A stretch of DNA of 64,000 nucleotides from Chitinophagales bacterium (GTDB lineage: Bacteria > Bacteroidota > Bacteroidia > Chitinophagales > LD1), in contig JAXLUO010000018.1 in assembly GCA_046329495.1 (NCBI GenBank), positions 15,045 to 79,044 on the forward strand. Reading direction: 5' to 3'. The notes below the pieces were generated by a model. The model made no database searches and had not been told where the DNA came from. It saw nothing but the letters and a program-made list of their open reading frames with translations. This document shows positions 31,804 through 59,078 of this stretch, in pieces; position 1 is the stretch's first letter, and each line of letters opens with the position of its first letter. The position numbers and the translations under genes are program-made.

Positions 31804-31854
31804 ATACTATCTTTTAAATCCGTTGCGGACTATTCTTTACAATCAAATCCGGAA

Positions 31855-32934: not shown

Positions 32935-32944
32935 AACAATCTTT

Positions 32945-34312
32945 TTATTGGTTGATAGATGCACCCGCTACAGCACGCTCCAGTTCAGCATACTTTATCC
33001 AGGCATCGAAATAGGAAATTGATTTTTGCAGACTCGCCAGCGTTGTTTCATTCCGGGCATCCAGATACTCGATATACAAGGCTTGTCCTTCCTTATACTT
33101 CTTGTTCATCAACCCAAAATACTCCCCGGCTGATTGTTCCTGCTGCCTTGCACTTTCGTACTGCACGCCGGCCGATGTATAGCTGTTATTGGCAGCAGTG
33201 GCAGCTAACTCCAATTGATTTTCTACATACTGCGTTTGTGCGTTCAGCGCCTGTAGTTCCACCTGCGCCTGCTTTATGCGGTGCACATCGCGCAGGCCGT
33301 TAAACAAATGCCAGTCAAACGAAATACCTAACAGGTAATAACGCGAACTGCTGTTGAATTTAAAATCCGATGCCTGCGAACCCAAATTCATCTGCGCACC
33401 AACTTTGGGTATCCAGGCGCTTTTTTGCAAACTCAGAATATGCTGGTCAACTTTCTTTGCTAAACCCAGTTTCACCAACTCCTCGCGCTTACCGGCGTTC
33501 ACCGAACTGCTTGCCGGCAAGGGTTGCAAATTGTTCAGCAGTGTTTCATCAATGGCAATCTCGCTATCCAGTGGTTTGTTCAACAAAAAGTTGAAATAGG
33601 CCGCCGCATTCTTTTTGGTATTCTGTGCATCGGTAAGTTTGGCTTCTATCTTATTTACCTCGCTCTTGGCGCGACTCAACACATAGGCCACTTCCTTGCC
33701 GTTATCAACCAGTTTCTGATTTACCCGCTCGCTTTCTTTTACCAGGCCCAAAGCTGCTTCATAAATCCGCACAGCCTGCACCGCCTTCAGGTAATTAAAG
33801 TAGGCCACCTTAATATCCTTTACCAGTTCGCGCTTGTAAATGGCTACTTCGTTTTGTTGCAGTGCTACCTGGTCTTTCTTAATGCTTCGGTTATACCATA
33901 CTTCGGCATTAATTAATGGCAAACTGGCCTGGAAATACGCATTATAAAAATTCTTAGGGTTTAATTGTTCCGATACATTGCTGATGGTAGGGTATTGCGG
34001 CGAACCCGGCGCAAACACCGCATTTATCGCATTCAGGTTTTGATATACCGGGTTCATTAAATCGCCTACCGGTATGTCAATGCTTCTGCCCCCGCGCGAA
34101 TCAAGGTAATTGGCCTGCAGACTGATATCCGGAAAAAACAGCCCCATGCTTTCTTTTAAAGCATACAAGCTTTTGGTTAGTTGAAAATTCTGCTGCTTGA
34201 TAGCCTGGTTGCTATCCAACCCCTGTTGCACATAGGCATTTAGTATATCACCTTGTGCTACAGCCAACTGAACCGTTAGCAGTAGTAAAAAAAGTAGTTT
34301 AATCGCTCGCAT
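32945..34312 (-). CDS. TolC-family outer membrane efflux protein
   Basis: 455 aa with a signal peptide and two repeated alpha-helical/beta halves. First gene of the efflux operon. Confidence 0.85.
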   Translation of the reverse strand: MRAIKLLFLLLLTVQLAVAQGDILNAYVQQGLDSNQAIKQQNFQLTKSLYALKESMGLFFPDISLQANYLDSRGGRSIDIPVGDLMNPVYQNLNAINAVFAPGSPQYPTISNVSEQLNPKNFYNAYFQASLPLINAEVWYNRSIKKDQVALQQNEVAIYKRELVKDIKVAYFNYLKAVQAVRIYEAALGLVKESERVNQKLVDNGKEVAYVLSRAKSEVNKIEAKLTDAQNTKKNAAAYFNFLLNKPLDSEIAIDETLLNNLQPLPASSSVNAGKREELVKLGLAKKVDQHILSLQKSAWIPKVGAQMNLGSQASDFKFNSSSRYYLLGISFDWHLFNGLRDVHRIKQAQVELQALNAQTQYVENQLELAATAANNSYTSAGVQYESARQQEQSAGEYFGLMNKKYKEGQALYIEYLDARNETTLASLQKSISYFDAWIKYAELERAVAGASINQ

Positions 34313-34328
34313 ACTTTTATGTATTAAC

Positions 34329-34349
34329 TTAATGAACAGTGTTTAGTAA
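34329..34349. promoter_or_regulatory. Putative TetR operator upstream of the tolC-mfp-rnd operon
   Basis: ttaatgaacagtgtttagtaa has the palindromic core AACAGTGTT. It matches the site at 35017-35036 in 17 of 19 positions in the opposite orientation. Confidence 0.55.
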
Positions 34350-34364
34350 TCAGCCAAAAAAATA

Positions 34365-34991
34365 TTACGCCTTCAGTAATCCCATCAACTCATCTAATGC
34401 ATGCAACATCATAACTCGCAATTGATCATCTTCCATATCCATCACCTTAAATCGCTCGCGGATCTTTAACGAAACAAGCCCATGCACCATACTCCAGGTA
34501 TACATGCTGGCCAAATTAGCATCGCTGGCGCGTATCAGCTTTTGCTCCATGCATTCCATCACTGTGGTCTGCAACAGTGCAAAGGTACTTTCACCGCACT
34601 TCCAGCAATTCTCCTCAGCATGCTTTTCTGCAATGGCCTTCATCGGCGCACGCATAATAAACATCAGGTCGTAGTATTCCGGATTCTCCAGCGCAAAATC
34701 AATATAGGTGGTTCCCAGGGCACGCAAACGCTGCAACGGATTTTCAATGCTCATGCATTGTTGCATCAAGCTTAACAACTTACCAAACCCTATCTCGTGG
34801 ATGGCAAAGAACAACTCGTCTTTATCTTTAAAATACAGGTAAATAGTGGCGGGGCTATACTCTATCTTCTCAGCAATATTCCGGATGCTGGTCTTCTCAT
34901 AACCATCTTCCAGAAACATTTCCGTAGCAGCTTCCAAAATGCGTTCCCGCATTTCCATCTTCTCACGTTCTTTTCTTTCAGCTATACCCAC
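34365..34991 (-). CDS. TetR/AcrR-family transcriptional regulator
   Basis: N-terminal HTH (YEKTSIRNIAEKIEYSPATIYLYFKDKDELF). Located directly upstream of the efflux operon. Confidence 0.9.
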   Translation of the reverse strand: MGIAERKEREKMEMRERILEAATEMFLEDGYEKTSIRNIAEKIEYSPATIYLYFKDKDELFFAIHEIGFGKLLSLMQQCMSIENPLQRLRALGTTYIDFALENPEYYDLMFIMRAPMKAIAEKHAEENCWKCGESTFALLQTTVMECMEQKLIRASDANLASMYTWSMVHGLVSLKIRERFKVMDMEDDQLRVMMLHALDELMGLLKA

Positions 34992-35016
34992 GGCTCATCC
35001 CTATTTACGGTGCAAA

Positions 35017-35036
35017 TTTACTGAACACTGTTTATT
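35017..35036. promoter_or_regulatory. Putative TetR autoregulatory operator
   Basis: tttactgaacactgtttatt lies 26-45 nt upstream of the TetR start. It has the same AACA-N-TGTT core and flanks as the 34329-34349 site. Confidence 0.55.
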
Positions 35037-35148
35037 TTCCAAATTTTACTCTACAAAATTTTCACCTTATTCCTCCTACCATCCTGCTCATCAACCTTTA
35101 ATCATACATTAGCCCATAGCCAAGCAAGGTGTCTAAAAGCAGTATTTT

Positions 35149-36999
35149 ATGCAGGATTGGGATTTAAAAACAGTGGAGGAACTGGAGCAATTAGTACCGC
35201 CAGAACCGGTTACCGAACAGGATATCGATTTGTATAACCGCCTGGCCGCTAAATTACTGCATGTTAATCGCGACCGGGCTTTTGAACTTGCCACCAGCGC
35301 CCGCAAGGCTGCTTTGGAACTTAACTATACGTATGGCGACATAAAGGCGCGGTCCTCACTCGGTTGGTTACAGTCCGACCCCCAGCAAGGCATCGCCCTT
35401 TTAATTGATTGCATACCCCAGCTTGCGGAATTGAACAAACCAGTCGACCAGCTTCCCGTGTTTAAAAACCTCTCGTTGCTCAGCCGCAAAGCAGGCGATT
35501 TAGATGCAGCCCTGGAGTATGCAAAGCAGGCCGTATTGTTATGCGAAACACTACAACTTACCGATAGGTTAGGCAATAGTCTTAGCTTATTGGCTACCAT
35601 CTATATTACGCGCTGCGATTACGCACAGGCTTTGCAACTGATGTTAAGGGCCCTGGAATTATTAGAGGAGTATGGGCAAAAAGCTGAAATAGCATCAGCC
35701 TGCAGCAATCTGACTGCCTTATATTTTAATCTCGAAAACCTGGACAAGGCACTGGAGTACGCCCAAAAAACTTCGCAAAATTATAAGGAGGCCAACCAGC
35801 ATATGTTATATGCCGAAGCGCTCTTAATTGAAGGACAATGCTGGGGCCGCATGGATAAACCCACCGAAGCGTTGCAATGCTTTGAGGCTGCCTTGCTCGA
35901 AGCACAACAGATACATCATACCGAACTGGAAGCTGAAATTCTTGTAAACATGGGCGGTTTACATTTGCTAAAAAAAGAATACGATCCGGCGCTTTTATAT
36001 CTATCGCAAGGCCTCAACCGGTGTACAACATTAAAATTACTGCAACCGCAAGTGTATGCATTAATGTGCCTGGGCAATTTATTTAAATCAGCCGAATACC
36101 CGAACCGCAACCTGCAACAAGCGGAAGAATATTTGCTGGAAGCCCTTGCTGTGGCCGAGCCTAATGGATTGAAATGGGATACGCGTGAAATTACCGGAAC
36201 ACTGGCCGATTTATATGCCACTACGGGTAACTGGCAGGCTGCCTATAACAATCAAAAGCGCTTTACCATTTTAGAAAAGGAAATAAACACCTCTGAATCT
36301 CGTAATCAACTTGCCAATTTTGAAATTGAAAAAGAATTGGCCCTTACCGTAAAAGAAAAAGAAGTAACCGACCGCATACTGCACAATATCCTTCCTAAAA
36401 AGATTGCTACCCGCCTGCGCACCGGCGACGAAGAAATTATTGAACGCTACGAAAGTGCAACGGTGCTGTTTGCTGATATCGTTGGTTTCACCACGTGGAG
36501 CAAGGATATGCCCATAGCCGAACTGGCCAAAACGTTGAACAAAATATTCAGTTTGTTTGATGAGCTGGCGCATCGTCACAAGGTCGAAAAAATCAAAACC
36601 ATCGGCGATTCGTATATGTGCGTGGCGGGTTTACCGGAACGCTGCGATGATCATGCCGAACGTATAGCAAACATGGCCTGCGCTATGATTTCCCATATCA
36701 GCGGTCTTTTCCCTGATGGTAAAATACAATTGCGCATAGGCATACAAACCGGCGAAGTAATTGCAGGTGTATTGGGTAAAAACAAATACGCTTACGATTT
36801 ATGGGGAGACACCGTAAATACAGCCAGCCGTATGGAAAGCCACAGCCTACCGGGCCGCATACAGGTTACTGAAGAAGTTAAAAATTTACTGGCCGGTAAG
36901 TTTATCTTCCATCAACGCGAAGAAATGGAGGTAAAGGGAAAGGGAACCATGCATGTATATTTTCTGGAGCCCCACGCCTCCGGTATTTCGATATTGTAA
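35149..36999 (+). CDS. TPR-repeat protein fused to a class III adenylate/guanylate cyclase domain
   Basis: About 380 aa of TPR-like helical repeats, then a coiled coil, then the cyclase domain (ATVLFADIVGFT, KTIGDSYMCVAG, GDTVNTASRMES). Confidence 0.9.
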   Translation: MQDWDLKTVEELEQLVPPEPVTEQDIDLYNRLAAKLLHVNRDRAFELATSARKAALELNYTYGDIKARSSLGWLQSDPQQGIALLIDCIPQLAELNKPVDQLPVFKNLSLLSRKAGDLDAALEYAKQAVLLCETLQLTDRLGNSLSLLATIYITRCDYAQALQLMLRALELLEEYGQKAEIASACSNLTALYFNLENLDKALEYAQKTSQNYKEANQHMLYAEALLIEGQCWGRMDKPTEALQCFEAALLEAQQIHHTELEAEILVNMGGLHLLKKEYDPALLYLSQGLNRCTTLKLLQPQVYALMCLGNLFKSAEYPNRNLQQAEEYLLEALAVAEPNGLKWDTREITGTLADLYATTGNWQAAYNNQKRFTILEKEINTSESRNQLANFEIEKELALTVKEKEVTDRILHNILPKKIATRLRTGDEEIIERYESATVLFADIVGFTTWSKDMPIAELAKTLNKIFSLFDELAHRHKVEKIKTIGDSYMCVAGLPERCDDHAERIANMACAMISHISGLFPDGKIQLRIGIQTGEVIAGVLGKNKYAYDLWGDTVNTASRMESHSLPGRIQVTEEVKNLLAGKFIFHQREEMEVKGKGTMHVYFLEPHASGISIL

Positions 37000-37158
37000 C
37001 AGACTTTTCTTTTGTAGACCACATTGCCCAATGTGCTCATGCTATCCACCTGCACGAGCGGTTTTTACTAAAAAGCAGAAGAATCTTCGCTTCAACCTCT
37101 TGTCGGTGCCCTTGCCCCGCGCGGTACAAACTTTGCCCTCCTAAACAAAAGCAAAACC

Positions 37159-37518
37159 ATGAAAAAGAAACCGCCCGTTCCCGAGAACAACCTAACCCCT
37201 AAAGAAGATTTCAGCTACCCTTCATCAGAGGATATCTATAATCAGGAACAAAAAGTAGCCAACCTAACGGCCGAAGACGGCACACCACTGGAAGAAATAA
37301 CCAAAGAAAAAATGACGGGTTGGAACGAAAAGGACAGTCGGCAGGAAAAAACCGGCGACGACCTTGATGTGCCCGGTGCTGAATTAGACGATGCACAGGA
37401 AGCCGTAGGCAGCGAAGATGAAGAAAACAACTACTACAGTTTAGGTGCCGATAAGGAAGATGGCAACCCAACGCAAAACGAAGATTACATCAACCAGGAT
37501 GTGGAACCCGAACCTTAG
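37159..37518 (+). CDS. Acidic hypothetical protein
   Basis: 119 aa, D/E-rich and low complexity, probably disordered. Confidence 0.45.
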   Translation: MKKKPPVPENNLTPKEDFSYPSSEDIYNQEQKVANLTAEDGTPLEEITKEKMTGWNEKDSRQEKTGDDLDVPGAELDDAQEAVGSEDEENNYYSLGADKEDGNPTQNEDYINQDVEPEP

Positions 37519-37521
37519 TGG

Positions 37522-38526
37522 TTACGGAATATCGGTATAGTTAATCTCTACCCAATCCGATCCGTTCCACAACAACATTAAACTGTCGCCGTCGCCCATA
37601 TCGCGGCTGCTGGTACTTAAGCGCATGTTGGTGGTGGCAGGGTTGCTTTCTACACGTATGTTATTACCGCCGGTAGCAGTTACATTCAGCAACAAAAGCT
37701 GCCCGCGTACCACACCATCACTCAGCGTTGTTTTAGCCGAGCCGCCGTTAACGGTCGTTACTATATTAAAGTAACTACGTCCGCTAACATCCAACGTAAA
37801 ATCGGTGGTTACGTTTACCGTGGTATCGCGTAGCGATATGGCGCCGTTAATATCCATAGCCGTGGCCGGTGTAACGGCTCCTCCGCCTACACACATTTTT
37901 TTCGAATTCATACTTACGCCATCCGCAGTAATCCGCATCGATTCGGTTCCGTTCCGCTTAAATACCACATCGCTGTTATCTATTGTACCCAGCACGGCCG
38001 GTGTGCCTAAGCCGGTATTACCACCGGTAGTCCAAACCGTATTCGTGCTCTTAATAGTATCGTTGCCCTGGCCCACCCATATAGTGCCGTGGTCGTTCAC
38101 ATCCATTACGGTTACCGAAACTGCCGGCGACTTTGCCGCATATAAAGCATAAGGCACACTCATAAGCTGACTGGTACCCATATCCGTATAATTAATGCCT
38201 GCTGCAGGGTCTAACTCTACCTGCATAAATCGTTTGCCGCTCCAGTCTACGGTATTAAAGTTGCCGCTCACGGTTGTGCCACCACCTACCACCACCGAAA
38301 ATATACCCAGCGGTGTAGTAATAATGCTATCCCGCTCACTGTATAAAATCGGACCCGTAGCGCTATCCGCGTGAATGCTGATTTGCACGGTTGCCAAATG
38401 GTTAGGCATTATACTCCCTTGGTTATCACGCAGCACTGCCTGATAATTAAAACCGGGCGCCTGGGCGTTCACAAATACAGAGAGAATAAGCAGAAGAACA
38501 AAAACGGGTAGTTTTTTGAAGATCAT
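37522..38526 (-). CDS. Secreted protein sharing the N-terminal domain of the collagen-like protein
   Basis: Signal peptide MIFKKLPVFVLLLILSVFVNAQA. FNYQAVLRD ... [15 protein letters not shown] aligns with aa 27-129 of the 996 aa protein. Confidence 0.7.
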   Translation of the reverse strand: MIFKKLPVFVLLLILSVFVNAQAPGFNYQAVLRDNQGSIMPNHLATVQISIHADSATGPILYSERDSIITTPLGIFSVVVGGGTTVSGNFNTVDWSGKRFMQVELDPAAGINYTDMGTSQLMSVPYALYAAKSPAVSVTVMDVNDHGTIWVGQGNDTIKSTNTVWTTGGNTGLGTPAVLGTIDNSDVVFKRNGTESMRITADGVSMNSKKMCVGGGAVTPATAMDINGAISLRDTTVNVTTDFTLDVSGRSYFNIVTTVNGGSAKTTLSDGVVRGQLLLLNVTATGGNNIRVESNPATTNMRLSTSSRDMGDGDSLMLLWNGSDWVEINYTDIP

Positions 38527-38801
38527 AGCAACTTGGTTATTCGGTAAAATGGTTCCAACCCTACAAACCACAGTTTGTAGGCATAGTGCATGAACGAATG
38601 CCGGTTAAGAAGGTTTCAAAATCAACCCAAATAAATTAACAAAAGCAATATATGTGGACTATTTGAAGCTTTTAACCGCGTTCGGATACATATACGCCAT
38701 ATTCCGCTAACCGGATCAATGCAATGGCAAAAAAAAGTTGATGTTATTTAAAAATAAGACGCCTCCGATCCTGAACTGATAGTTAATGTATTGTCCAACT
38801 A

Positions 38802-39191
38802 TCATTTATCATACTTCCAGAGCACTTTAAATGCCGGTTGATCGTATCCGCTATATATTTTCATTTCCACCTGCTCTCCCTGCTTTAGCAAGTCTAAAAT
38901 AGGCTTATCCTCTGTCAGGTATTTTAACTTCTTCTCCTCATAATAGCTAACCTCGCTCGTATAAGTAAGTAGCGGATCCGACAGGCATACATTCTTTTTA
39001 TCCAGTACTTTTAAATTATACTCAGTGCTACTCGTAGACAAAGTAATATAACGGATGTTATTGCGCGATTTTATACACTTGGTTTGTCCATTCCACACAA
39101 TACGGTTAGGTAGAGCGCAGGCACTGAATGCCATTATAAATAATGACAAACACCAAACCAGTTCTGTTCTAAAGGGTTTAGTTCGATTCAT
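38802..39191 (-). CDS. Hypothetical exported protein/lipoprotein
   Basis: 129 aa with an N-terminal hydrophobic segment ending in SAC. AT-rich surroundings. Confidence 0.45.
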   Translation of the reverse strand: MNRTKPFRTELVWCLSLFIMAFSACALPNRIVWNGQTKCIKSRNNIRYITLSTSSTEYNLKVLDKKNVCLSDPLLTYTSEVSYYEEKKLKYLTEDKPILDLLKQGEQVEMKIYSGYDQPAFKVLWKYDK

Positions 39192-39452
39192 CTACTATCT
39201 CCCCCCAATACCGTGTAAGCCCCCCGTTTTTAAGATAGGGTTGGATTAGACTATTGCTGTTTAATAATGATCGAAGTTAAATAATTTATATCAGAGCTAT
39301 TATTACTAGAACCGCTGTTGCATGTGGTAAACTCCTGCGAGCCTGAGCGGGGCGGAGTTTGGGTAACTAAGGAAATAAGGTAAGCACTGTTATGGAACTA
39401 AATCGGTAGCAGCTAAAATTTTAAAACGGGAAGACTGGAAGACACCTATTAT

Positions 39453-39731
39453 TTACCGGTAAATAAATAGCATTACTAAACCGATTAGGAAAATACCAAA
39501 GCAAATCACGTAACCCATATAGACTTTCTTCGCATACCTTATTTGTGCTACTTTAATAGTGTCACTTTCTGACGCCAATGCCTGATTAAATTTCGCCAAG
39601 GATGGCCTTCCTCCAACTTTAACCAATCCATTAAAATAAAGTTTACCGTACAGAAAACCAGCATAAACAGACAGACAGCCACACAGCACTGCAAGCAGAA
39701 CAAGCCCAAACTCAAAACTGTTAAATTTCAT
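39453..39731 (-). CDS. Hypothetical small membrane protein
   Basis: 92 aa with two predicted transmembrane segments. It lies between a 14-mer shared with locus C and the body of repeat copy B. Confidence 0.4.
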   Translation of the reverse strand: MKFNSFEFGLVLLAVLCGCLSVYAGFLYGKLYFNGLVKVGGRPSLAKFNQALASESDTIKVAQIRYAKKVYMGYVICFGIFLIGLVMLFIYR

Positions 39732-39897
39732 CTCTTCTTAAAATCAACTCAGTAAAGATATTTTAAATCTCATGAACAAGAATATTGCTGCCGTCTGCGT
39801 GGGTAGAAGAAAGAGTATACCAGCAAACCATTTTGTTAATTTTAAGTACTACTATTTGAAACTTTAAACCATTTAACCTATCTTTACAGAGCAATAA

Positions 39898-39910
39898 GTT
39901 CTTTGACAAC
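39898..39910 (+). promoter_or_regulatory. boxA-like motif GTTCTTTGACAAC in the conserved 5' module
   Basis: Identical 13-mer in copy C (58716-58728, minus strand) within otherwise diverged flanks. It resembles the rrn boxA motifs GCTCTTTAACAA and GTTCTTTGAAAAC as I recall them. Confidence 0.4.
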
Positions 39911-40178
39911 CTCAGTAAAACCTAAACCACCGGCAACCCACAACTGTCGCAAGGGTAAACTATACCTGCACACCGGGCACGAAATGTTATCTTAAGTCAA
40001 GCCAATGCCGGACAAAAGATGACATCTCTGTAGACCTGCCTGCCACAAACACACAGGATAACTATGCCCTGCCGCCAAACACTTTAAAATTCCGGCAATT
40101 TGTGCACGCAAAATCAACTGCACAAATGTGCACAAATGAAAACTTCTCTAATGCGTTCCATGTTGGAACTTGCCGAAA

Positions 40179-40629
40179 GTGTAAAGAAGTGTAAAGTTTA
40201 ACCTGCATTTATCTTGAAATTCCTCTACATCCAGAACATCCTGGTTCTAAAAGTGTAAAGGAGTGTAAAGTTGCAATTGCCGTGAACAGTGAACCGAGAA
40301 CTCTTTTAATTGTAAAGAAGTGTAAAGTTTGACCTGCATTTATCCTGAAAATCCTCTAGATCCTGAACATCCTGGTCCAAAAAGTGTAAAGAAGTGTAAA
40401 GTTCTATAAACTGTATTCTTTTTCTGTCTCTGTGTTAAATCATCGATTTCGATCATTTAACACAACCTTTTTCAGGACGCTACACGGGCTGTTAATCCTG
40501 AAATCCTCTAATCCTACGAATCCTAGTTCAGACAAAATTGTAACGAAGTGTAAAGTTTAACCTGCATTTATCCTGAAAATCCTCTAGATCCTGAACATCC
40601 TGGTCCAAAAAGTGTAAAGGAGTGTAAAG
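40179..40629 (+). promoter_or_regulatory. Iteron-like array: six (G/T)TGTAA(A/C)G-N3-GTGTAAAG sites (40179, 40253, 40310, 40384, 40538, 40612). Three pairs enclose about 50 bp tracts of ATCCT phased every 9-10 bp.
   Basis: Read directly. The tract cctgcatttatcctgaaaatcctctagatcctgaacatcctggtcc recurs at about 40202, 40333 and 40561. Confidence 0.7.
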
Positions 40630-40847
40630 TTTAAACCAAAAAAATTCTTTGCGTCTTTGTGTAAACCGCTTTTTTAATCGATTTAACACAAAAATCGCTC
40701 ATATGAATTTTTCTGTAACTTGTGCACAAGCTGAAAAGTGCACAAGCATGCACAAGTAGCTGTGGATAACCCCGGACTCTTCTGGCCTCCCATCAACGTT
40801 AAAAATACACTGCAAAACAGCCAATTAAGCGCAACGCTGCATTTTCA

Positions 40848-40874
40848 CCCCCTCTTTGCGAAGCAGAGAGGGGG
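40848..40874. other. Strong GC-rich hairpin (12 bp stem, 3 nt loop) with no T-tract
   Basis: ccccctctttgc gaa gcagagaggggg, one mismatch. Confidence 0.6.
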
Positions 40875-41080
40875 CCGGGGGGTGAGTCGAGGGCAAACTG
40901 GCTATCGAGAACACACCTACGGGGAACGAGGAACAATCCTGATTCAGCATTCTAAAATCAAAAATCCGTAATGATAGGCTTGATAGGCCTTTACGTGCAA
41001 CCAATCAATCCCTATCATTCCCAATCAAAAACTATCAAACCCTATCATAACTGTAAAACAGCAAGCCATCCATCTAAAGG

Positions 41081-41400
41081 TGTAACCTTTTTCAAAAAAT
41101 AAAACAACTCCGGCATCCTTGTATTTATCTGTGTATTATGTGCAATCGGTGGTTAACTGTATTTCAACCTTTAACTACCGCGCCAATCATAAAAATCTGT
41201 GTTTCTCTGCGTTCCATTAAAAGCGTGCCCCCTAATTCAATGTAACCTTTTCAAAAAAATAAAACAACTCCGGCATCCTTGTATTTATCTGTTTTAATCC
41301 GTGCAATCTGTGGTCAATTGTATTTCAAGCATTAAATACCGCGCCAATCATAAAAACCTGCGTTCATCTGCGTTCCATTGTATTACCCACCCATTCTCTA
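41081..41400 (+). repeat. Tandem repeat, 2 x about 160 bp, in the leader of the lipid operon
   Basis: gtaacctttt at 41082 and at 41242. The units share aaaataaaacaactccggcatccttgtatttatctgt and ccgcgccaatcataaaaa.ctg.gtt..tctgcgttccatt. Confidence 0.8.
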
Positions 41401-41475
41401 TATTGACTTTTATCACCCCAAAAACCTGCCTCCATTCCCCCGCACTTTCCTATTTTAACCCCTGCAAACTATACC

Positions 41476-43128
41476 ATGCAAGTAATAGACATACACCCCG
41501 ATTGGTGGAAGTGGGGCACTGCCGAAAAACGCAAGGCCCTAACCGATTATCCGAATCTGAAAACACATCTGGAACAACGTTGGAACATCGGCTTAAACAC
41601 CCGTCGCGATGAGCCCGCCAATTTTCCGGTACTAGCCAATGCCGATAACGCAAACAAACTGGAGATACTCTTTGGTCAGTTCAACTTTACAACAAAGGCC
41701 GATACCCGCTTAATTAAAAGCCTGGGCAAAAGCTATAAGGACCTTTTGTTTTCTGTTACCCGCACGGCTGTGCGTGTGGTGGATGGTGTGGTCTATCCGC
41801 AGAATCACGAGGAAATACAGCGTATTTTAGAGATTGCTTCGCGCGAAGGCGTGCTGGTAATGCCGTTCGGCGGTGGCAGCAACGTATGCGGCGATTTCGA
41901 TTTACCGGGTGCCGATGCCCGCCCCCGACTGGCTATGGACATGGCGAAGATGAATACCCTGCTACACCTCGATAAGGTAAACCACAAGGCCACCTTTCAG
42001 GCAGGTATTTATGGTCCGGCGCTGGAGCAAATGTTGAATGCACAGGGCTTTACCCTGGGTCATTTCCCGCAATCGTTTGAATATTCAACTCTCGGCGGTT
42101 GGGTGGTAACCCGCAGTGCAGGACAGGAAAGTTCCGGTTATGGTCGTATAGAAGATATTGCCATTGCAATAAAGGTGGCCACACCCACAGGCACCCTGCA
42201 AACCAGTAGTTACGAAGGCGACGCCGCCGGGGTGAACCTGAAAGGATTATACTTTGGCAGCGAAGGCATGTTTGGCGTAGTAACGGAAGTTACGGTGCGT
42301 ATCCATCCCCTGCCTAAAACAAAACAATGGGCTATTGCCTTATTCCCTAACTACCAAAGCGGGTTGAATGCGCTGCAAAGTTTAGTGCAGCAAAACATCT
42401 TCCCTACCGTTGTGCGCTATAGCGATGAGCACGAAACATTCTTTCTATCGCTGCTTTCGCACGAAACACCGGGCTTTGTTACCAACATAAAAGCAGCAGT
42501 AAAAAGCGCGGTGCTTAAATGGAAGAAGCTGGAGCAAGGCTGCATTATGATGATACGTTTTGAAGATGATTGTGGTGAAGATTGTCCGAAGTTGGAAAAA
42601 GCAAAACGCGCCTTTAGCGATAACGGTGCTATGCTGTTAGGCGATGCACTGGGCAAACGTTGGGAAACCAGCCGCTTTGGTTTGCCCTATTTGCGCGATG
42701 ACATGATGTTGCGCAATGTAGTGGTTGATACCATGGAAACCGTAGTACCCTGGAACAAAATTGACGAGTTGCGCAAAAAACTGCGCCTGGCTTTGGATAC
42801 CTGCACAGCCTTTCAAAATCAGCAGGGCATCCTGTTGGCGCATGTATCGCACGTATATACCAGTTGCGCCAGCATTTACTTTACCGTACTTACACCTATG
42901 CAAACAGGTAACGAAATGAACCAATGGCGCGAGATAAAGAAAACCGTAACCGATACGATTGTGAACAATGGTGGAGCAGTATCGCATCACCATGGCGTTG
43001 GTAAGGACCACCAGCCCTGGTATCTGCAAACTACCGATGAAGTAACCAAGCGCATTTTGCAAAGTGTAAAACAGGCTGTTGACCCGGCCAATATTCTTAA
43101 CCCCGGCAAGTTGTTCGATGAAGCGTGA
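41476..43128 (+). CDS. FAD-linked oxidase, alkyl-DHAP synthase (AGPS)-like
   Basis: 550 aa. PCMH-type FAD-binding domain (VVYPQNHEEIQRILEIASREGVLVMPFGGGSNVCG) and a C-terminal FAD-oxidase domain (HHHGVGKDH). Confidence 0.8.
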   Translation: MQVIDIHPDWWKWGTAEKRKALTDYPNLKTHLEQRWNIGLNTRRDEPANFPVLANADNANKLEILFGQFNFTTKADTRLIKSLGKSYKDLLFSVTRTAVRVVDGVVYPQNHEEIQRILEIASREGVLVMPFGGGSNVCGDFDLPGADARPRLAMDMAKMNTLLHLDKVNHKATFQAGIYGPALEQMLNAQGFTLGHFPQSFEYSTLGGWVVTRSAGQESSGYGRIEDIAIAIKVATPTGTLQTSSYEGDAAGVNLKGLYFGSEGMFGVVTEVTVRIHPLPKTKQWAIALFPNYQSGLNALQSLVQQNIFPTVVRYSDEHETFFLSLLSHETPGFVTNIKAAVKSAVLKWKKLEQGCIMMIRFEDDCGEDCPKLEKAKRAFSDNGAMLLGDALGKRWETSRFGLPYLRDDMMLRNVVVDTMETVVPWNKIDELRKKLRLALDTCTAFQNQQGILLAHVSHVYTSCASIYFTVLTPMQTGNEMNQWREIKKTVTDTIVNNGGAVSHHHGVGKDHQPWYLQTTDEVTKRILQSVKQAVDPANILNPGKLFDEA

Positions 43129-44677
43129 AGCACAAATACAGCGTGCACAAACCAAGCACTTTGATGTTGCCATCATCGGCGGCGGCATAACCGGCGCCGG
43201 CATTTTAATGAATGCCGTGCAGCAGGGTTTAAAAGCTGTGTTGATCGAAAAGAATGACTTTGCCTCGGGCACCAGCAGCCGCTCTTCTAAAATGATACAC
43301 GGCGGGTTGCGTTATATGCAGTACATGCAGTTTGGCTTAATTAAAGAAGCCCTGCAGGAGCGCGGCCATCTGCTCAAAAAGTTTCCGCACCTGGTTAAGC
43401 CGGTTGGTTATGTGTTCCCGCATCATGGTTCTAAACTGGGTTTGTGGGTAAAGAACATAGGCTTGACTTTGTATGACACCATGGCTGCTGATGCGGAGTT
43501 CCCGAAACATGTGTTACTCAACAAAGCGCAAACGCTTAGCGAAATAAACGGCTACACTACCGATAAACTGGCCGGCTCTATTTTGTATTACGATTGCGGC
43601 ACCAACGATGCCCGCTTAACGGTAGATACCATTTCGGAATGCATACACTACGGTGCGGTAGCTATTAATTATGTAAAGGCGATAAAAGCAGAAGGCGATG
43701 ATGCAATCACCACGCTACAATGCAACGATGTGTTAAGCGGAAGCAGCTTTAGTATTCAAGCTAAAGTATACATCAACGCCACCGGTATATGGACCGATGA
43801 AACCCTGCAACAGGTTGCCGGTATACCAAGCCGGCGCATGATGCCAACTAAGGGCATACATGTAGTGGTGAGCACCGATAAGTTACCCGCTAACCGCGTG
43901 GCCATTGTAAAAGTGCCCGGCGAAAAACGGTATATCTACAACCTGCCCTGGGAAAACAACCTGAGCATATTAGGTACTACCGATACTACCTACAACGGTC
44001 GCAACGATGAGGTACTCACAACCGAAGCAGATGTGCAATACATTCTGGATGCCTTCAACCACTGCTTCCCGAATTTGAAACTTACCTATGCCGATGTAAT
44101 AAGCGTTTATGCCGGTTTGCGTCCTCTATTAAACGACGAAGGAAAGGACAACAGCAGCCGCTCGCGCGAATACGAAACCTGGTGGAGCAAAACCAACTGG
44201 CTGAATATTGCCGGTGGTAAACTCACGTCGTTTTTAAATATGGGTAAGCGTTGCCTGCAGGTGGTACATCAAAGGTTCCCCGGCATGCAGGCCGGTATTC
44301 CTGAAAAAGAAACGTGGCACGGCACAGGCAAATGGGCCAAAGAGTATGGCGAGTTTGGTTTATTGATTGAAGCCATTGAACACGAAAAACCTGAACATAC
44401 ACAACGCATTAGTGCTGTGTATAACTACACCATAGCCGAACTGTTGTTTTTTATTCGCTACCAGTTTGCACAGCAGGTAGCAGATTTACTAACCCGCCGC
44501 ACCAGTGTTACTTATGCTATGCGCAATTATGATGCTTTACTTGTAAAGCAAGTGGCGGAATTGATGGCCCGCGAATTGCAAAAAGACGCTGCCTGGATAG
44601 AGGCAGCCTGCAATAGCTACTATCAGCATTGGCAGGAGTATCATCCCGCTTTCCTTACATCAACCCCTAAATCATAA
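43121..44677 (+). CDS. glpD: FAD-dependent glycerol-3-phosphate dehydrogenase/oxidase
   Basis: FDVAIIGGGITGAG dinucleotide motif, SSRSSKMIHGGLRY, GGKLTSF. The ATG overlaps the upstream stop (ATGAAGCGTGA). Confidence 0.85.
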   Translation, partial: KREAQIQRAQTKHFDVAIIGGGITGAGILMNAVQQGLKAVLIEKNDFASGTSSRSSKMIHGGLRYMQYMQFGLIKEALQERGHLLKKFPHLVKPVGYVFPHHGSKLGLWVKNIGLTLYDTMAADAEFPKHVLLNKAQTLSEINGYTTDKLAGSILYYDCGTNDARLTVDTISECIHYGAVAINYVKAIKAEGDDAITTLQCNDVLSGSSFSIQAKVYINATGIWTDETLQQVAGIPSRRMMPTKGIHVVVSTDKLPANRVAIVKVPGEKRYIYNLPWENNLSILGTTDTTYNGRNDEVLTTEADVQYILDAFNHCFPNLKLTYADVISVYAGLRPLLNDEGKDNSSRSREYETWWSKTNWLNIAGGKLTSFLNMGKRCLQVVHQRFPGMQAGIPEKETWHGTGKWAKEYGEFGLLIEAIEHEKPEHTQRISAVYNYTIAELLFFIRYQFAQQVADLLTRRTSVTYAMRNYDALLVKQVAELMARELQKDAAWIEAACNSYYQHWQEYHPAFLTSTPKS

Positions 44678-44684
44678 TTGCCGC

Positions 44685-45596
44685 ATGAAAAAGATCGCCT
44701 TTATTATCCATGGTCGCTTAAAAACACAAGGCCGTTTACAGCAGGAAGCATTAAGCACCTTTCAACCCGATTACCAGGTTTCGTTTTTATTAACGGAGCG
44801 TAGTGGTCATGCCACGGAACTTACCATGCGTGCGGTAGAACAGGGTTGCACGCACATTATCTGTTGTGGTGGCGATGGTAGTTTAAATGAATGCGCCAAC
44901 GGCCTTATGCAATGCGGCGATAAAGCAGCCGATGTGCAGTTAGGTGTGTTACCTTACGGCACCGGTAACGACTTTATCAAAACGGTTCAATCACCAAAAA
45001 CAATGGCTGCCTTAAAACAGGCTATCGAGAAGGGTGGTAAAAAGCTGATCGACTTAGGCCATGCCTGGTATACGGGAACAGATGGTCAACCGGTTAACCG
45101 CTACTTTATTAATATAACCGACATCGGTATGGGCGGTGTGGTAGCTGAAAAGTTGAGCCGTAGCAGTAAGATGTTCGGCTCTACCGTTACTTACCAATAC
45201 TCTATTATCTCCACCTTCTTTACTTACCAAAAGCAACCCATTAAGGTGCAGGCAGATAGTTTTAAGTACGAAGGCCGTGTGATGAACTTTGTAATTGCCA
45301 ACGGTATCTGGTTCGGTAGTGGCTTAGGTGTTTCGCCCGATTCGGATGTGTGCGATGGCTTGCTGAACGTAATTGCCCTGGGCGATGTGGGCACAGCCGA
45401 CTACTTTAAAAACCTGAGCAAAGTAAAGAAGGCCGAAAAAGTAATGCACCCCGAAGTGAAATATATGACAGCCCGCGAAGTAAATGTTGAATCATCATTA
45501 GGTCCCATTAGCATTGATATGGATGGGGAGTTTGTGGGCTACTCGCCCTTAAAGGTTAAAGCAGTACACAAAGCGCTTTGGTTTATTACGGGTTAA
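44685..45596 (+). CDS. Diacylglycerol kinase-family lipid kinase (YegS/BmrU/sphingosine kinase-like)
   Basis: GGDGSLNE and LPYGTGNDF motifs of the DAGK catalytic domain. 303 aa. Confidence 0.85.
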   Translation: MKKIAFIIHGRLKTQGRLQQEALSTFQPDYQVSFLLTERSGHATELTMRAVEQGCTHIICCGGDGSLNECANGLMQCGDKAADVQLGVLPYGTGNDFIKTVQSPKTMAALKQAIEKGGKKLIDLGHAWYTGTDGQPVNRYFINITDIGMGGVVAEKLSRSSKMFGSTVTYQYSIISTFFTYQKQPIKVQADSFKYEGRVMNFVIANGIWFGSGLGVSPDSDVCDGLLNVIALGDVGTADYFKNLSKVKKAEKVMHPEVKYMTAREVNVESSLGPISIDMDGEFVGYSPLKVKAVHKALWFITG

Positions 45597-45927
45597 AAGC
45601 GCATTTTACACATAAGTATTATTTGCTATTCAACTTGCAATTGGGCATATTTTACCACATAGCGAAAGTTCGCAGTTGTTAAATATGCTATGTTTTAAAG
45701 GCCGGTGTGGAGAAAAAAGAAGGCATAACATTTGTTGCATTTTCAGCAAAAAACACGCAAAAACAAATGCTTTTGACGTCATTTTATGCTCAATTCCATT
45801 TGTGCTCATTCATATATGCAAAGTGTTTTCCACGCATATTAAAGCGCCTAAAAACGAATTTTTCGCAAAAAGGCACATCTTTGTATTCATCCATAAAACG
45901 AAGCGATTATTCACGAAAAGGTTTTGA

Positions 45928-47151
45928 ATGAGTCTATTCGATAAATGCTACAACTATAACGATGCCGACCTTACTAAGGACAAAGGCGTGTATCCTTACT
46001 TCCGCCCTATTCAGGAAAGCGAAGGCCCCACTGTAATGATGGAAGGTAGAAGGGTGGTAATGGCAGGTTCTAACAATTACCTGGGCTTAACGGCACACCC
46101 TAAAGTAAAGGAAGCAGCATTTGCGGCGCTTAAGAAATACGGCACCAGTTGTTCCGGCTCACGCTTCCTAACCGGCACTATCGATCTGCACATTAAGTTG
46201 GAAGAAAAGATAGCACGCTTTATGGGCAAGGAAGCCGCACTGTTGTTCAGTACAGGATTCCAGGCCGGCCAGGGTGTTATCTTCCCTTTAATCAGCAAAG
46301 GCGATTACATCTTAAGCGACCGCGATAATCATAGCAGCATTGTAGCAGGCAACTTATTGAGTGCTTCTATGCACGCACATGTAGTACGCTACAAGCACAA
46401 CGATATGGAGGATTTGGAGAATCGCTTATCCAAAATCCCTGCCGAAGCAAACAAACTGATTGTTACCGATGGCGTGTTCAGCGCACATGGCTTGGTAGTT
46501 AACTTAACCGATCTTACCGCACTTGCTAAAAAGTATGGCGCACAGGTATTGGTAGATGATGCACACGGCTTTGGTGTACTTGGTCCTGATGGAAAAGGTA
46601 CCGTGCATCATTTCGGCGCTGAAAATGATGTAGACCTTATTGTATGTACCTTCAGCAAAACCTTAGCTTCTTTAGGTGGTTTTGTAGTTGGCGAAGAGCG
46701 CGTTATCAATTACCTGAAACATAAATCACCGGCCTTAATATTCTCTGCATCACCTACACCTGCATCTGTTGCAGCTGCTGATGCAGCACTGGATATATTA
46801 ATAGAACAACCGGAATTAGCAACACGTGTTCGCCGCAATGCTGAACGTGTTCGTCAGGGCTTGCGCGATGTAGGCTTTTCAGTTATTGAAGGCGAAGCAG
46901 CTATCGTTCCGGTTATCATCGGCGACGATCAAAAGACTTTTGCTATCTGGAAGATGTTATATGAAGAAGGCGTGTTTGTGAATGCGTTCATTTCGCCTGC
47001 AACGCCTCCGGGCATGCAAATGCTGCGTACCAGCTATATGGCTACACACGAAGACCACCACCTCGATTTTATAGTAGATAAATTTCTAAAGGTGGGCCGG
47101 CAACTCGATTTACTGAACCGCGACATAGAAGAAGAGCGCAAAAGAGCCTGA
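45928..47151 (+). CDS. spt: Alpha-oxoamine synthase, most similar to Bacteroidota/Sphingobacterium serine palmitoyltransferase
   Basis: YPYFRPI, GSNNYLGL, GSRFLTGT, LFSTGFQ, VDDAHG, the PLP lysine in TFSKTLASLGGF, and GVFVN. This matches my recollection of Sphingobacterium SPT better than BioF or Kbl. Confidence 0.7.
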   Translation: MSLFDKCYNYNDADLTKDKGVYPYFRPIQESEGPTVMMEGRRVVMAGSNNYLGLTAHPKVKEAAFAALKKYGTSCSGSRFLTGTIDLHIKLEEKIARFMGKEAALLFSTGFQAGQGVIFPLISKGDYILSDRDNHSSIVAGNLLSASMHAHVVRYKHNDMEDLENRLSKIPAEANKLIVTDGVFSAHGLVVNLTDLTALAKKYGAQVLVDDAHGFGVLGPDGKGTVHHFGAENDVDLIVCTFSKTLASLGGFVVGEERVINYLKHKSPALIFSASPTPASVAAADAALDILIEQPELATRVRRNAERVRQGLRDVGFSVIEGEAAIVPVIIGDDQKTFAIWKMLYEEGVFVNAFISPATPPGMQMLRTSYMATHEDHHLDFIVDKFLKVGRQLDLLNRDIEEERKRA

Positions 47152-47210
47152 TAAATTAAACTAATTATATTTCGGGATGCTATGCGCAGGCAGGCACCAA
47201 ACAAACAGTC

Positions 47211-48509
47211 ATGAAACAACGCCATTACTACTACATTGAAGGAAAAGATCCTCAAAACCCATCGCAATTAAAATACCTGCGCCGACAAATAGAATGTGAT
47301 GATGCATTTGATGGAGAGTTGATCCTTTTGGCTTTCCCGATTAAGTTGCTGGATGAAATATCAGGAGTCCTATCGCATTTTCAATTGCGCGATGATGCCG
47401 ACTATTTTTACAGCGAATGCCGTGAAGTAGTAAGCGTTCCTGAAAAGCACGTAAACGAAAAGGGCGAAGGTAAACTGACCTTTCAGAGTTACTTCCATAA
47501 GTTCCCTGAGTCGGTAAATTCATTCTTTGACGATGCTAAGGTGGTAGTCATCTTGCATCCACTGGATAGTGCCGATAACAACCGTCGTAACTACAATATG
47601 ATCGGTTACATCCATGCCAACCATATCGACTTCACTTCACCGGACGGACAACTGCATAAAGGCTATTACTACAATGTATTGCGATTAAGCGAACAAACGG
47701 TAAACGGTGAAGCTATTTATCGCCGCAAGCGACTATTCACAACTATGTTCAGTGTGTTATTGGATATCGTTACACTGGAAGACATTCACTTTGTATATGC
47801 CAGCATGGGCCGCGAAAACCAGGCCATTAACGATGCGCTGAAAATGAACAGCGAACGCCACGGCAAGTTTTTCGAAACCTTCCCGATGCGTAACAACACG
47901 CACATCAACATCATTTATGGCAGTGGCAGTGCCGCCAATAAGCTGGTAGACATCTCAAAAAATCACGAAGCCTTGCGCGAATACTACAGCAAGTTAAAGC
48001 AGCAGAAACACAACTTCGTATTCAACCAGATGCACAACGAGAGCAACTTTATGAATATGGTTAACCGTATTCTTAGCTCTTCGCCAACAAGTCGCATTTA
48101 TATGATGCCCGACAAAGCAGGTAACTTTGATGCAGCCGGCTTTACCATCAACTGGGGCGACTACATGCACCTGAAACTGCAAAACCCTAAAGGACTCTTT
48201 AAGGTTATTGATAGCATGAAAATTACCGATAAGATTCTGTATCCAACCTTATTGGTCGGCTCGCCTGAGAATGTGCGTCAACTGGCCAAAGGTGCTGCAT
48301 ATAAGTATCGTAAGGAACACGGCGTTCAGGTAACTGTATTAAACGGTCACGAAGGAGATCCATATTTTGATGTAAAGAAGAGTATCGTATATGATCCGTT
48401 TGTATACTTTGTAATCTATGACCGTCCGGAGACTTACGAAGCCATGAAGGCCCACAGTAGGGATGCCGCCGGTAACACCCGCATCTTTATTGAAACGCCC
48501 ATGTTATAA
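47211..48509 (+). CDS. Hypothetical protein, 432 aa, function unknown
   Basis: Long ORF with coding-like composition, 59 nt downstream of the spt-like gene on the same strand. No motif recognised. Confidence 0.6.
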   Translation: MKQRHYYYIEGKDPQNPSQLKYLRRQIECDDAFDGELILLAFPIKLLDEISGVLSHFQLRDDADYFYSECREVVSVPEKHVNEKGEGKLTFQSYFHKFPESVNSFFDDAKVVVILHPLDSADNNRRNYNMIGYIHANHIDFTSPDGQLHKGYYYNVLRLSEQTVNGEAIYRRKRLFTTMFSVLLDIVTLEDIHFVYASMGRENQAINDALKMNSERHGKFFETFPMRNNTHINIIYGSGSAANKLVDISKNHEALREYYSKLKQQKHNFVFNQMHNESNFMNMVNRILSSSPTSRIYMMPDKAGNFDAAGFTINWGDYMHLKLQNPKGLFKVIDSMKITDKILYPTLLVGSPENVRQLAKGAAYKYRKEHGVQVTVLNGHEGDPYFDVKKSIVYDPFVYFVIYDRPETYEAMKAHSRDAAGNTRIFIETPML

Positions 48510-48685
48510 CAGGTAACGTAATTACGCTTAAAGTCGCGAAGTATAATCAAGTTGATTTCATCCAATTCGTTGAACCTTGGGTCCTAATGGCAAGAGTATT
48601 GTGCGTGTAATGAGTGTTCTCATGGCGGGTTTTAAAATTGGCCCTAATTTTGCACCTTCACTCCTAATCCCACAAATTAACAGAT

Positions 48686-49504: not shown

Positions 49505-49507
49505 AAA

Positions 49508-49921
49508 TTAATTACGGGGCTCAATCAATAACTCATTGTAACCGGTCTGGGCATCTTGTCTTCGGGCAAAGTTCAGACTGGTTATTTCTCCTATAACAAT
49601 CTCGGCTGTTGTATAAATGAGGTTGCCATTCAATAAGTGGCCTCCGGTAACCTGCCCATCACTATCTGCAATTGACATATGTAGATGCGCGGCTCCATTA
49701 CCAATAGTGCCCACCAGCGAAACAATCTCGAACTTATTATCCAGCAGCATGCCTTCCTGACAATCGGCAAAGCGAAGGCTGGCCTGTTGTAAACTGCCAT
49801 TGCAGGTTGCTACAAAGGCAGCCTTTAGCTGATGCGTTTCCGCAAATGCCAGTAATTCAATCTTTAAATCCTGCCCAGGCTTCAAGCGCAGGGCATAGTA
49901 GGTTGCAGGGCTACCCGTCAT
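49508..49921 (-). CDS. PPC (DUF296) domain protein
   Basis: RLKPGQDL ... FEIVSLVGTI ... HLHMSIADSDGQVTGGHL is the typical DUF296/PPC pattern. Confidence 0.7.
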   Translation of the reverse strand: MTGSPATYYALRLKPGQDLKIELLAFAETHQLKAAFVATCNGSLQQASLRFADCQEGMLLDNKFEIVSLVGTIGNGAAHLHMSIADSDGQVTGGHLLNGNLIYTTAEIVIGEITSLNFARRQDAQTGYNELLIEPRN

Positions 49922-49926
49922 AGGGT

Positions 49927-50883: not shown

Positions 50884-50971
50884 ATCTTATAACCAATTAA
50901 GCACAACAACCCTGCACATTTCTACATGTTGCAGGGCTGTTGTATAAAGAAGAATTGCAGTTTCGTTCAAA

Positions 50972-54954: not shown

Positions 54955-55029
54955 TAGTTAGGAGTTGTGAGTGATGAGTTTTGCGTGATGCTTTCATTCA
55001 ACTATTTTATTGCTATCTATTATTACATT

Positions 55030-59056: not shown

Positions 59057-59078
59057 TTATATTGTAAACCGGCACACC

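Follow-up and report, generated by a model that had tools for sequence, protein, structure and literature searches.

A 64,000-nucleotide stretch of a Chitinophagales genome (assembly GCA_046329495.1, contig JAXLUO010000018.1, positions 15,045 to 79,044), hereafter the window, contains three copies (A, B and C) of one non-coding element of about 0.4-1 kb, which is punctuated by a tandem doublet of an 8-mer. The element is a polar mosaic with a near-invariant delimiter and fixed spacing classes; its arrays expand and contract, its copies are gained and lost, and it is positioned at the junctions of an inversion. The reading we favour, with modest confidence, is that the doublets serve as the delimiter unit in a mosaic interspersed repeat, non-coding and specific to this lineage, which is predicted to be built of phased sites for head-to-tail DNA-binding proteins.

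The 8-mer GTGTAAAG is present in 16 copies in the window against 2.24 expected, a number reached by none of 100 shuffles, and all of them lie within the three copies of the element. As a doublet with a 2-nt spacer, 10 bp from start to start, it gave ten matches against 0.59 expected, of which nine are real and one is a spurious overlap. The original prediction, made from the sequence alone, had listed the same nine sites (six in B, two in C and one next to A), and all were recovered by the scan with the corrected pattern. The 3-nt spacer and the 11-bp distance between half-sites that it proposed were wrong, as GTGTAAAG-N3-GTGTAAAG has no match in the window even at 2 mismatches. The aaa and tt flanks it described belong to a 24-bp unit, with an A-rich 5' and a TT 3' flank in the logo of 99 units, and its three site pairs around a common tract in copy B correspond to three 96-nt modules, each bounded by doublets. 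ATCCT does recur periodically in that tract, but with a period of exactly 9 bp (starts at 40342, 40351, 40360 and 40369) instead of the proposed 9-10 bp, while the heptads seen in the spacer of copy C are a 7-nt periodic tract at 58358-58394. Contrary to what had been suggested, neither short tract is helically phased, because the periods are 9 bp and 7 bp; the phased feature is the spacing from unit to unit (41-42, 83-84 and 116-117 bp). The doublet feature is real and non-random in the window and is conserved in a related genome, so neither random occurrence nor lack of conservation, two outcomes named beforehand as speaking against it, was found. The parts of the three copies are listed below.

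1-250, + strand: copy A, cut by the window start; R block, one delimiter unit and a heptad remnant
4-104, + strand: R block of copy A, with TTGTGCACAA and two further TGCACAA sites at 54-89
95-103, + strand: perfect DnaA box TGTGGATAA of copy A
153-176, + strand: single delimiter unit of copy A, 8-mers at 157-164 and 167-174
157, + strand: doublet site of copy A in the pattern scan
177-250, + strand: T1-like heptad remnant of copy A
39826-40050, + strand: distal leader (Lfar) of copy B, from the alignment of copies
40051-40160, + strand: leader core (Lcore) of copy B; TTGTGCA at 40100-40106, 12 nt, TGCACAA at 40119-40125, 3 nt, TGCACAA at 40129-40135
40175-40631, + strand: array of copy B, six units at 40175-40198, 40249-40272, 40306-40329, 40380-40403, 40534-40557 and 40608-40631
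40179, 40253, 40310 (1 mismatch), 40384, 40538 (2 mismatches) and 40612, + strand: doublet sites of copy B in the pattern scan
40177-40272, 40308-40403 and 40536-40631, + strand: three doublet-bounded 96-nt modules of copy B, 91-97% identical
40437-40468: dyad of copy B with a 15-bp stem, GTGTTAAAT..ATTTAACAC
40640-40780, + strand: R block of copy B; inverted GTGTAAAC..TTTAACAC pair, AT-rich stretch, TTGTGCACAA at 40720-40729, TGCACAA at 40739 and 40749
40761-40769, + strand: perfect DnaA box TGTGGATAA of copy B
58137-58805, - strand: copy C, inverted relative to B; same parts, two units
58608-58803, - strand: Lfar of copy C
58497-58605, - strand: Lcore of copy C
58421-58438 and 58334-58351, - strand: 8-mers of the two units of copy C, with a 69-nt T1 insert between them and the heptad tract at 58358-58394
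58334 and 58421, - strand: doublet sites of copy C in the pattern scan
58189-58320, - strand: R block of copy C, ending in TGTTGATAA

Homology between the copies begins sharply at ATTTTGTTAA...ATTTGAAACTTTAAACC...CTATCTTTACA...AAGTTCTTTGACAACC in Lfar of copy B. The 56-nt inserts of the three modules of B carry the ATCCT tract, which is best preserved at 40342-40373, is also found at 40570-40601, and is degenerate at 40211-40242. Copy A has the order R block, then one unit, and its R block is 94% identical to that of B (16-104 versus 40682-40770). Small open reading frames (ORFs) in 39100-41500 were rejected as genes, as they have no credible coding potential and the indels between copies are not multiples of three. 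A tRNA and tmRNA search of the window gave nothing relevant and no tRNA; no Rfam family reached the gathering threshold in the window, and a permissive scan over the element returned nothing meaningful.

The distribution of the element was examined with the 23-mer AAAGTGTAAAGNNGTGTAAAGTT, which was scanned against 185,579 species representatives in GTDB, one genome each. The 22 loci recovered include 20 from one and the same Chitinophagales metagenome-assembled genome (MAG), JBGAIB01. Judged by the identity of the FAD oxidase (92%) and LepA (95%) at the amino acid level, and of the genes at about 80% of nucleotides, this MAG and the window organism are closely related. The MAG possesses at least 20 arrays distributed over nine contigs, about one per 200 kb, compared with three in the 64-kb window, and the two sources together provide 24 arrays with 99 units. 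Three isolated motif matches, one each in a Sphingobacteriales MAG, a Bacilli MAG and a metagenome contig, come without any of the other modules and were taken as unrelated or chance. More distant relatives have zero units in about 20 kb around lepA, annotated plasmids and phages contain nothing similar (blastn, distant mode), and a literature search on the motif returned only primers and unrelated sequences.

The delimiter is a 24-bp unit, AAAA-GTGTAAAG-nA-GTGTAAAG-TT, consisting of two 10-bp direct repeats and fixed flanks. The logo of the 99 units, AAAA-(G/c)TGTAAAG-n-A-(G/c)TGTAAAG-TT, leaves one internal position free. Perfect units number 63 and a further 28 have one mismatch, hence 91 of 99 are within one mismatch. 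The information content is close to 2 bits at 23 of the 24 positions, and likewise in the heptad tract, and is about 0 bits in the 17-20 nt of variable insert beside the unit. Units of one array share one orientation and, at untruncated loci, are located 3' of the Lcore motif. The whole element is polar, starting from a leader of about 330 bp that ends in TTGTGCA-N12-TGCACAA-N3-TGCACAA, a geometry found 5' of most arrays, and followed by an optional R block and an array of one up to thirteen units. The R block comprises a dyad, three TGCACAA sites and, in only some cases, an AT-rich stretch and a DnaA box; its position varies, giving L-R-K in some copies and L-K-R in others, where L denotes the leader and K the delimiter unit. 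The commonest layout is L / K-S-K-T-K, with S a short insert and T a heptad insert.

At least six classes of insert, ranging from 22 to 193 nt, are flanked by the 24-bp unit. Short inserts (26 cases, 22-26 nt) consist of 'tt', 17-20 variable nt and 'aaaa', some with a degenerate TTGTGCA; they have kept their length although their sequences have diverged. Heptad inserts (24 cases, 59-69 nt) start with about 20 semi-variable nt and continue with four or five TCTGATY heptads. Inserts with ATCCT repeated every 9 bp are found in copy B of the window and in locus L002. Two hairpin-type repeat families that are also present elsewhere, a 137-nt unit and a few unique pieces make up the other sequences between units. 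Insert lengths are multimodal, with classes at 22-26, 59-69, 96-99 and 114 nt, and inserts recur within and between arrays. Measured from start to start, unit spacings peak at 41-42, 83-84 and 116-117 bp, corresponding to about 4, 8 and 11 turns of 10.5 bp, with a wider spread over 41-44, 74-87, 114-117, 132 bp and other values. Long arrays arise through block tandem duplication, as in L022 and in the three 96-nt modules of copy B, and deletion of modules also alters arrays.

Small repeats accompany the arrays in both genomes. A family with a cccctct...agagggg hairpin followed by ggggtgag is found after copy B (40838-40885) and at L015 (2989-3056), and also constitutes the 114-nt inserts inside several arrays of the MAG (L005, L007, L014 and L021). 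Another family, gtcatcctgaacgaagcgatagcgaagtgaaggatc, makes up the inserts of about 98 nt. A 10-nt microsatellite resembling CCCTATCAAA adjoins arrays in the window (41001-41050) and in the MAG (L020, after the array), and array spacers are unusually rich in short tandem repeats overall, including this microsatellite and the 7-nt and 9-nt tracts.

A unit with its insert folds worse than most shuffled sequences (z = +2.0, +1.0, +1.6 and +0.3, both strands), and significant dyads were observed in the R block only (z = -2.3 and -3.6). The unit is a direct doublet without dyad symmetry, and no inverted pair of delimiters was found in any locus. A hairpin repeat of the REP, BOX or MITE type was rejected on the poor folding and the lack of inverted delimiter pairs. 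A CRISPR array was rejected as well, on the multimodal spacing, the recurrence of inserts in few families and the absence of a recurrent gene nearby. The array might also be transcribed from a promoter in the leader, with the repeat-insert units acting as an unstructured protein-sponge RNA or being processed into CRISPR-like small RNAs. The strict polarity downstream of a conserved leader, the alternation of repeat and variable insert with a fixed short-insert length, and the unusually unstructured units, as possible for sponge sites, are all in line with this idea. We nevertheless give it a small probability, given the lack of an Rfam hit, of a positionally conserved -7 box and of any excess of promoters or terminators. 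Moreover, inserts fall into few shared families of multimodal length and are not unique, no cas-like or other gene recurs nearby, and half of the arrays would run into the 3' ends of convergent genes.

The gene context of the arrays is heterogeneous. Among 20 scorable arrays, ten are co-directional with the downstream gene and ten are convergent to it, and distances from array to gene start vary from 28 bp to more than 900 bp. All three copies in the window are oriented toward the downstream gene. Neighboring genes are functionally unrelated and encode, for example, type IX secretion system cargo, MbnP, aconitase, RibD_C, glycosyltransferase, Mrr, P-type ATPase, FAD oxidase and SNF2 proteins. 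No gene recurs beside the arrays in the 8-kb locus blocks, whether rep, par, regulator, recombinase, primase-helicase or cas-like, and no cas gene is among the annotated neighbors in the window. The Bacteroidota -7 box (TAnnTTTG) shows no positional conservation, and promoters, sigma-70-type sites and terminators are at background level. A promoter cassette was rejected on the 10:10 orientation, the lack of a conserved TAnnTTTG and the lack of a sigma-70-type excess. A role tied to replication polarity was dismissed too, as array orientation agrees with the local GC skew in only 9 of 20 cases. An autonomous parent element was also sought and rejected, with no gene recurrent beside arrays and with unrelated termini on the IS481-like element of the MAG.

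The direct-repeat geometry for protein binding that was originally proposed agrees with the data in that identical half-sites lie 10 bp apart between conserved flanks and fit a CpxR-type box, GTAAA-N4-8-GTAAA (PMC5063474). The sites might then be operators of an OmpR/PhoB-type, CpxR-like response regulator whose regulon is the neighboring genes. Every unit contains GTAAA-N5-GTAAA, which matches the CpxR box, and the three copies in the window all face a downstream gene. Over the full set of 20 arrays, however, the even split of orientations, the unrelated functions of the neighbors and the wide range of start distances are hardly those of a regulon, and up to 13 sites per array together with hundreds of bp of conserved flank are atypical of operators. 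Such a regulon is in our view quite improbable.

Comparison with the MAG shows how the copies behave over time. Its gene order is RND-HlyD-OEP-TetR-cyclase-116aa-334aa(-)-AAA_28(-)-LepA(+)...FAD oxidase(-)-element-sdhB(-)-sdhA-sdhC. Blocks 29609-38655 and 58905-64000 of the window are collinear with the MAG, and the segment between them that is turned around is as follows.

41346-54950, no strand: segment inverted relative to the MAG, 13.6 kb, from FAD oxidase to AAA_28, lepA included

The mutually inverted copies B and C bracket this inversion, one at each junction, and DNA specific to the window is found at both junctions (38656-41345 and 54951-58136). The DNA absent from the MAG includes two small ORFs beside B and about 3.2 kb of accessory genes beside C. 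The second junction was reached through LepA, as the 162-aa gene beside C has no ortholog in the MAG. Copy C is the ortholog of the element in the sdhB/FAD-oxidase spacer of the MAG, with identities (R block 89%, Lfar 82%) similar to those of the neighboring genes. In this single orthologous pair available, the MAG copy is devoid of Lcore and has one unit against two in C. With six units in B and internal tandem duplications, the proposed change in array size is thereby borne out. The site of copy B is empty in the MAG, where the spacer L031 8902-9226 shows no trace of an element. No clean target duplication can be read from this sole empty-site comparison, which is confounded by the co-inserted ORFs and the inversion. 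The topology of the inversion would fit homologous recombination between inverted copies or intramolecular replicative insertion equally well. Over 76 nt, the R block of copy A matches a non-orthologous copy in the MAG (L016) at 96% identity, compared with about 80% for orthologous genes. Because paralogous modules are more alike between the two genomes (85-96%) than orthologous genes are, these identities imply that the modules are under constraint or have recently spread in both lineages.

The junctions and their surroundings have further peculiarities. Immediately 5' of the FAD-oxidase gene is a 161-bp tandem repeat (41081-41379, 1.9 copies, 87% identical), which is apparently single-copy in the MAG (L030, around 9826-9900). 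Its copies start with TGTAACC...CGGCATCC, and one may speculate that an ECF-sigma-type promoter was duplicated in tandem. A Logan contig of SRR26348422 (L023), equivalent to 41263-43653 of the window and 99.7% identical to it, ends inside this repeat, and therefore the repeat-rich spacer breaks assemblies. A perfect 128-bp tandem duplication (59829-60084) lies inside a 612-bp insertion (59853-60464) in the sdhA-sdhB spacer, which is just 45 bp long in the MAG (L030 8288-8333); an insertion within this core respiratory operon is unusual. The accessory block on the - strand at 55030-58082, which the MAG lacks, has genes for a pentapeptide-repeat protein, for two proteins with no Pfam match and for the 162-aa protein. 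Relatives of the latter are labelled predicted transcriptional regulators; one of these relatives carries a fused nucleotidyltransferase domain, in a toxin-antitoxin-like manner.

Two further alternatives were weighed. The first is a selfish or neutral repeat without a sequence-specific binder, in which the delimiters are uniform because of youth or gene conversion, and slippage and unequal crossing-over drive the arrays. It accommodates the restriction of the family to one lineage, the presence and absence differences between relatives, the copies at the ends of a rearrangement, and the 94% identity between the R blocks of A and B, which suggests recent duplication or conversion. No associated gene or gene function was found, and other small repeat families and microsatellites pile up in the same spacers, which also suits this view. 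Still, delimiters are near-invariant within single arrays next to 17-20 nt of about 0 bits, and conversion tracts of 24 nt are unlikely. The short inserts have a fixed length despite their sequence divergence, and the sdhB-spacer element is older than the split of two genomes about 20% diverged, with its units still intact. We therefore regard a repeat without a binder as rather unlikely.

The second alternative takes the delimiter for the recognition or attachment site of a site-specific recombinase or transposase, between duplicated copies of which inserts would accumulate, with accessory DNA entering beside the arrays. Tandem repeats of 10 bp are reminiscent of the arm-type sites of tyrosine integrases, and both B and C adjoin DNA missing from the relative. 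In one metagenome contig, an IS481-type transposase gene has at its end an exact unit together with TGTAAAG in inverted orientation, but this match is single and comes from an organism of 34% GC, and the MAG's own IS481-like element has unrelated termini. The architecture agrees with the description of the NIMEs of Neisseria (PMC1797815), in strict analogy to which this alternative is framed. No recombinase recurs near the arrays, and neither inverted delimiter pairs, clean insertion junctions nor target duplications were seen. A target array of this kind appears improbable to us.

The two kinds of site in the element are not confined to the arrays. The unit pattern matches two related phage contigs in IMG/VR (L024 and L025). 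In L024, 11 of the 13 GTGTAAA/TTTACAC sites of the locus are packed into one intergenic cluster of 185 bp (10660-10850), comprising tandem 7-mers, GTGTAAAG doublets at a 10-bp register and inverted copies; the same cluster is present in L025 (6030-6225). A 57-aa ORF lies on one side of it and a helicase-methylase gene on the other, with an ERF recombinase upstream; the cluster is probably an operator or origin of that phage. The Lcore pattern matches three near-identical contigs of 6-7.6 kb (L027, L028 and L029). In L027, a viral contig of 7.6 kb, 13 of the 14 TTGTGCA/TGCACAA sites form a 350-bp cluster (6634-6982) that starts right past the stop codon of a Toprim+AAA_25 primase-helicase gene and precedes a VRR-NUC gene, which is an origin-like position, and one group of sites has the exact N12/N3 geometry. 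This cluster is likely an iteron origin in the style of phage P4. Four scrambled, composition-matched patterns gave 0, 1, 0 and 0 hits, the single hit being an isolated duplication. The matches show that both site architectures serve mobile replicons as multi-copy cis-elements, without implying descent from or interaction with these replicons. A 996-aa ORF of the window (11294-14284, - strand), with long 45/135-bp periodic repeats and a collagen-like triplet pattern, shares 35% identity across 223 aa with an ORF of phage contig L024.

A further possibility, which we consider doubtful, is that the arrays are chromosomal copies of origin or operator sites of a mobile element, and that the initiator or regulator of a phage or satellite, recognising GTGTAAAG doublets and the TTGTGCA-N12-TGCACAA-N3-TGCACAA module, would also bind to the roughly 25 platforms, which would act as decoy sinks or gene-less hitchhikers. 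If the decoy version were true, the platforms would titrate the initiator of an invader and thus constitute a non-coding defence; in the hitchhiker version, a helper element would replicate or recombine platforms that have no genes of their own.

Replication could also be involved more directly, through iterons of an origin or a partition centromere at the locus, or through clusters of DnaA-titrating boxes of the datA/DARS type. The direct repeats, an AT-rich stretch, the perfect DnaA box in the R block, the 7/9 DnaA box in TGTGCACAA and the same motif geometries in origin-like clusters of mobile elements could be cited in its favour. Yet at least 24 arrays are dispersed in ordinary chromosomal contexts, none of them has a rep, par or primase-helicase gene as a neighbor, their orientation is independent of GC skew (9 of 20), and the DnaA box is restricted to some R blocks. 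A role of this kind is thus very unlikely, and the local iteron set, centromere or single-promoter operator of the original prediction does not hold for arrays so dispersed and without a recurrent rep, par or regulator gene.

The DnaA box has features of its own. A perfect copy, TGTGGATAA, is kept at the 3' end of the R block at 95-103 and 40761-40769 of the window and at loci L002 (445), L016 (1296) and L018 (4551), oriented like the three TGCACAA sites. The sequence TGTGCACAA matches the DnaA box at seven of nine positions. Copy C and its MAG ortholog have TGTTGATAA, which in C ends the R block. The box and the TGCACAA sites could form a DnaA-binding cluster.

Under the reading of a mosaic repeat built of phased protein sites, the delimiter and the TGCACAA motifs would be bound by sequence-specific proteins as head-to-tail dimers. 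With units spaced by about 4, 8 or 11 turns of the helix, the bound dimers would be aligned on one face of the DNA, where they may oligomerise. The element would then be a dispersed platform for nucleoprotein assembly, and the machinery with which a mobile element replicates or recombines is probably either its source or what recognises it. The repeats of the element may in addition provide homologous tracts through which units, and also copies, recombine unequally or ectopically, leading to changes in array size and to rearrangements. The constant length of the sequence-divergent short inserts is more telling here than the phasing test, whose statistics are inflated because inserts are homologous to each other.

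Several other points weigh against this reading. All loci of the MAG were found via the delimiter, so the scan missed elements without a perfect unit, which biases the architecture statistics. The analysis turned up no binding protein, and no gene recurs beside the arrays. Terminal inverted repeats and target duplications, which bear on the mode of spread, were not found. The constant polarity 3' of a conserved leader would be compatible with transcription of the array as well. The connection with mobile elements is suggestive only, with 21 specified bases per pattern and one of the four scrambled controls also matching, and proteins of the mobile-element contigs have no homolog in the roughly 260 kb of host DNA examined.

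Mosaic arrays punctuated by a delimiter have so far been essentially restricted to Neisseria, and the element described here, from Bacteroidota, parallels them in architecture without being related to them. With it, the reasons for which such arrays arise, and whatever binds to them, can be studied in a second, independent example. Between close relatives, the arrays coincide with an inversion and with differences in gene content, and the leader contains another type of site, one that is also present in putative origins of mobile elements. As a practical consequence, the repeats break short-read assemblies of this lineage, as seen in the Logan contig.

The closest parallel among known systems is that of the NIMEs, in which 20-bp dRS3 repeats, inverted repeats of the form ATTCCC-N8-GGGAAT, flank more than 100 families of RS units of 19-214 bp (PMC1797815). 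NIME arrays are syntenic between species, vary in number and are linked to recombination, and were not observed outside Neisseria as of the comparative paper of 2007; dRS3 is an integration site for prophage (PMC1797815), recognised by the recombinase of a Neisseria filamentous prophage. In both systems a short delimiter (about 20-24 bp) punctuates families of repeat units in intergenic arrays, which are syntenic with differing numbers of units, associated with recombination and variable neighboring DNA, able to contain other small repeats, and confined to one lineage. The delimiter here is however a tandem direct 10-bp doublet instead of an inverted repeat, and the arrays are strictly polar with a conserved leader that contains a second type of motif. 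There are also far fewer insert families and arrays (about 25 versus hundreds), no sequence similarity, and a different phylum. The Chitinophagales family is an analogue of the NIMEs and not a member, because the inverted-repeat feature of dRS3 is absent and strict polarity and a leader are added.

Pneumococcal BOX elements, boxA-boxB(n)-boxC, have terminal inverted repeats and fold into a stem-loop (PMC3049150). Like them, the present element is a modular, lineage-specific and expandable intergenic interspersed repeat, in which the end modules are fixed and the internal ones vary in number. It differs in that its units have less structure than shuffled sequence, that no terminal inverted repeats were seen and that the R block changes position. 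In phage P4, octamer iterons of ori and crr are bound by the alpha protein. The element shares with such phage and plasmid origins the sites of 7-8 bp in direct and inverted orientation at a register of about 10 bp, as well as the AT-rich stretch and DnaA box of the R block. No initiator gene accompanies the chromosomal copies, which number about 25 per genome and not one per replicon, and there is no evidence of replication initiation. The last comparison is with the boxes of CpxR and other OmpR/PhoB-type regulators, for which the CpxR consensus is GTAAA-N4-8-GTAAA (PMC5063474). The half-site sequence and the 10-bp direct-repeat spacing are alike, CpxR itself being a proteobacterial protein, whereas the sites of the Chitinophagales family are embedded in a duplicated element of 0.4-1 kb, in arrays of up to 13, with no consistent position or orientation relative to promoters.

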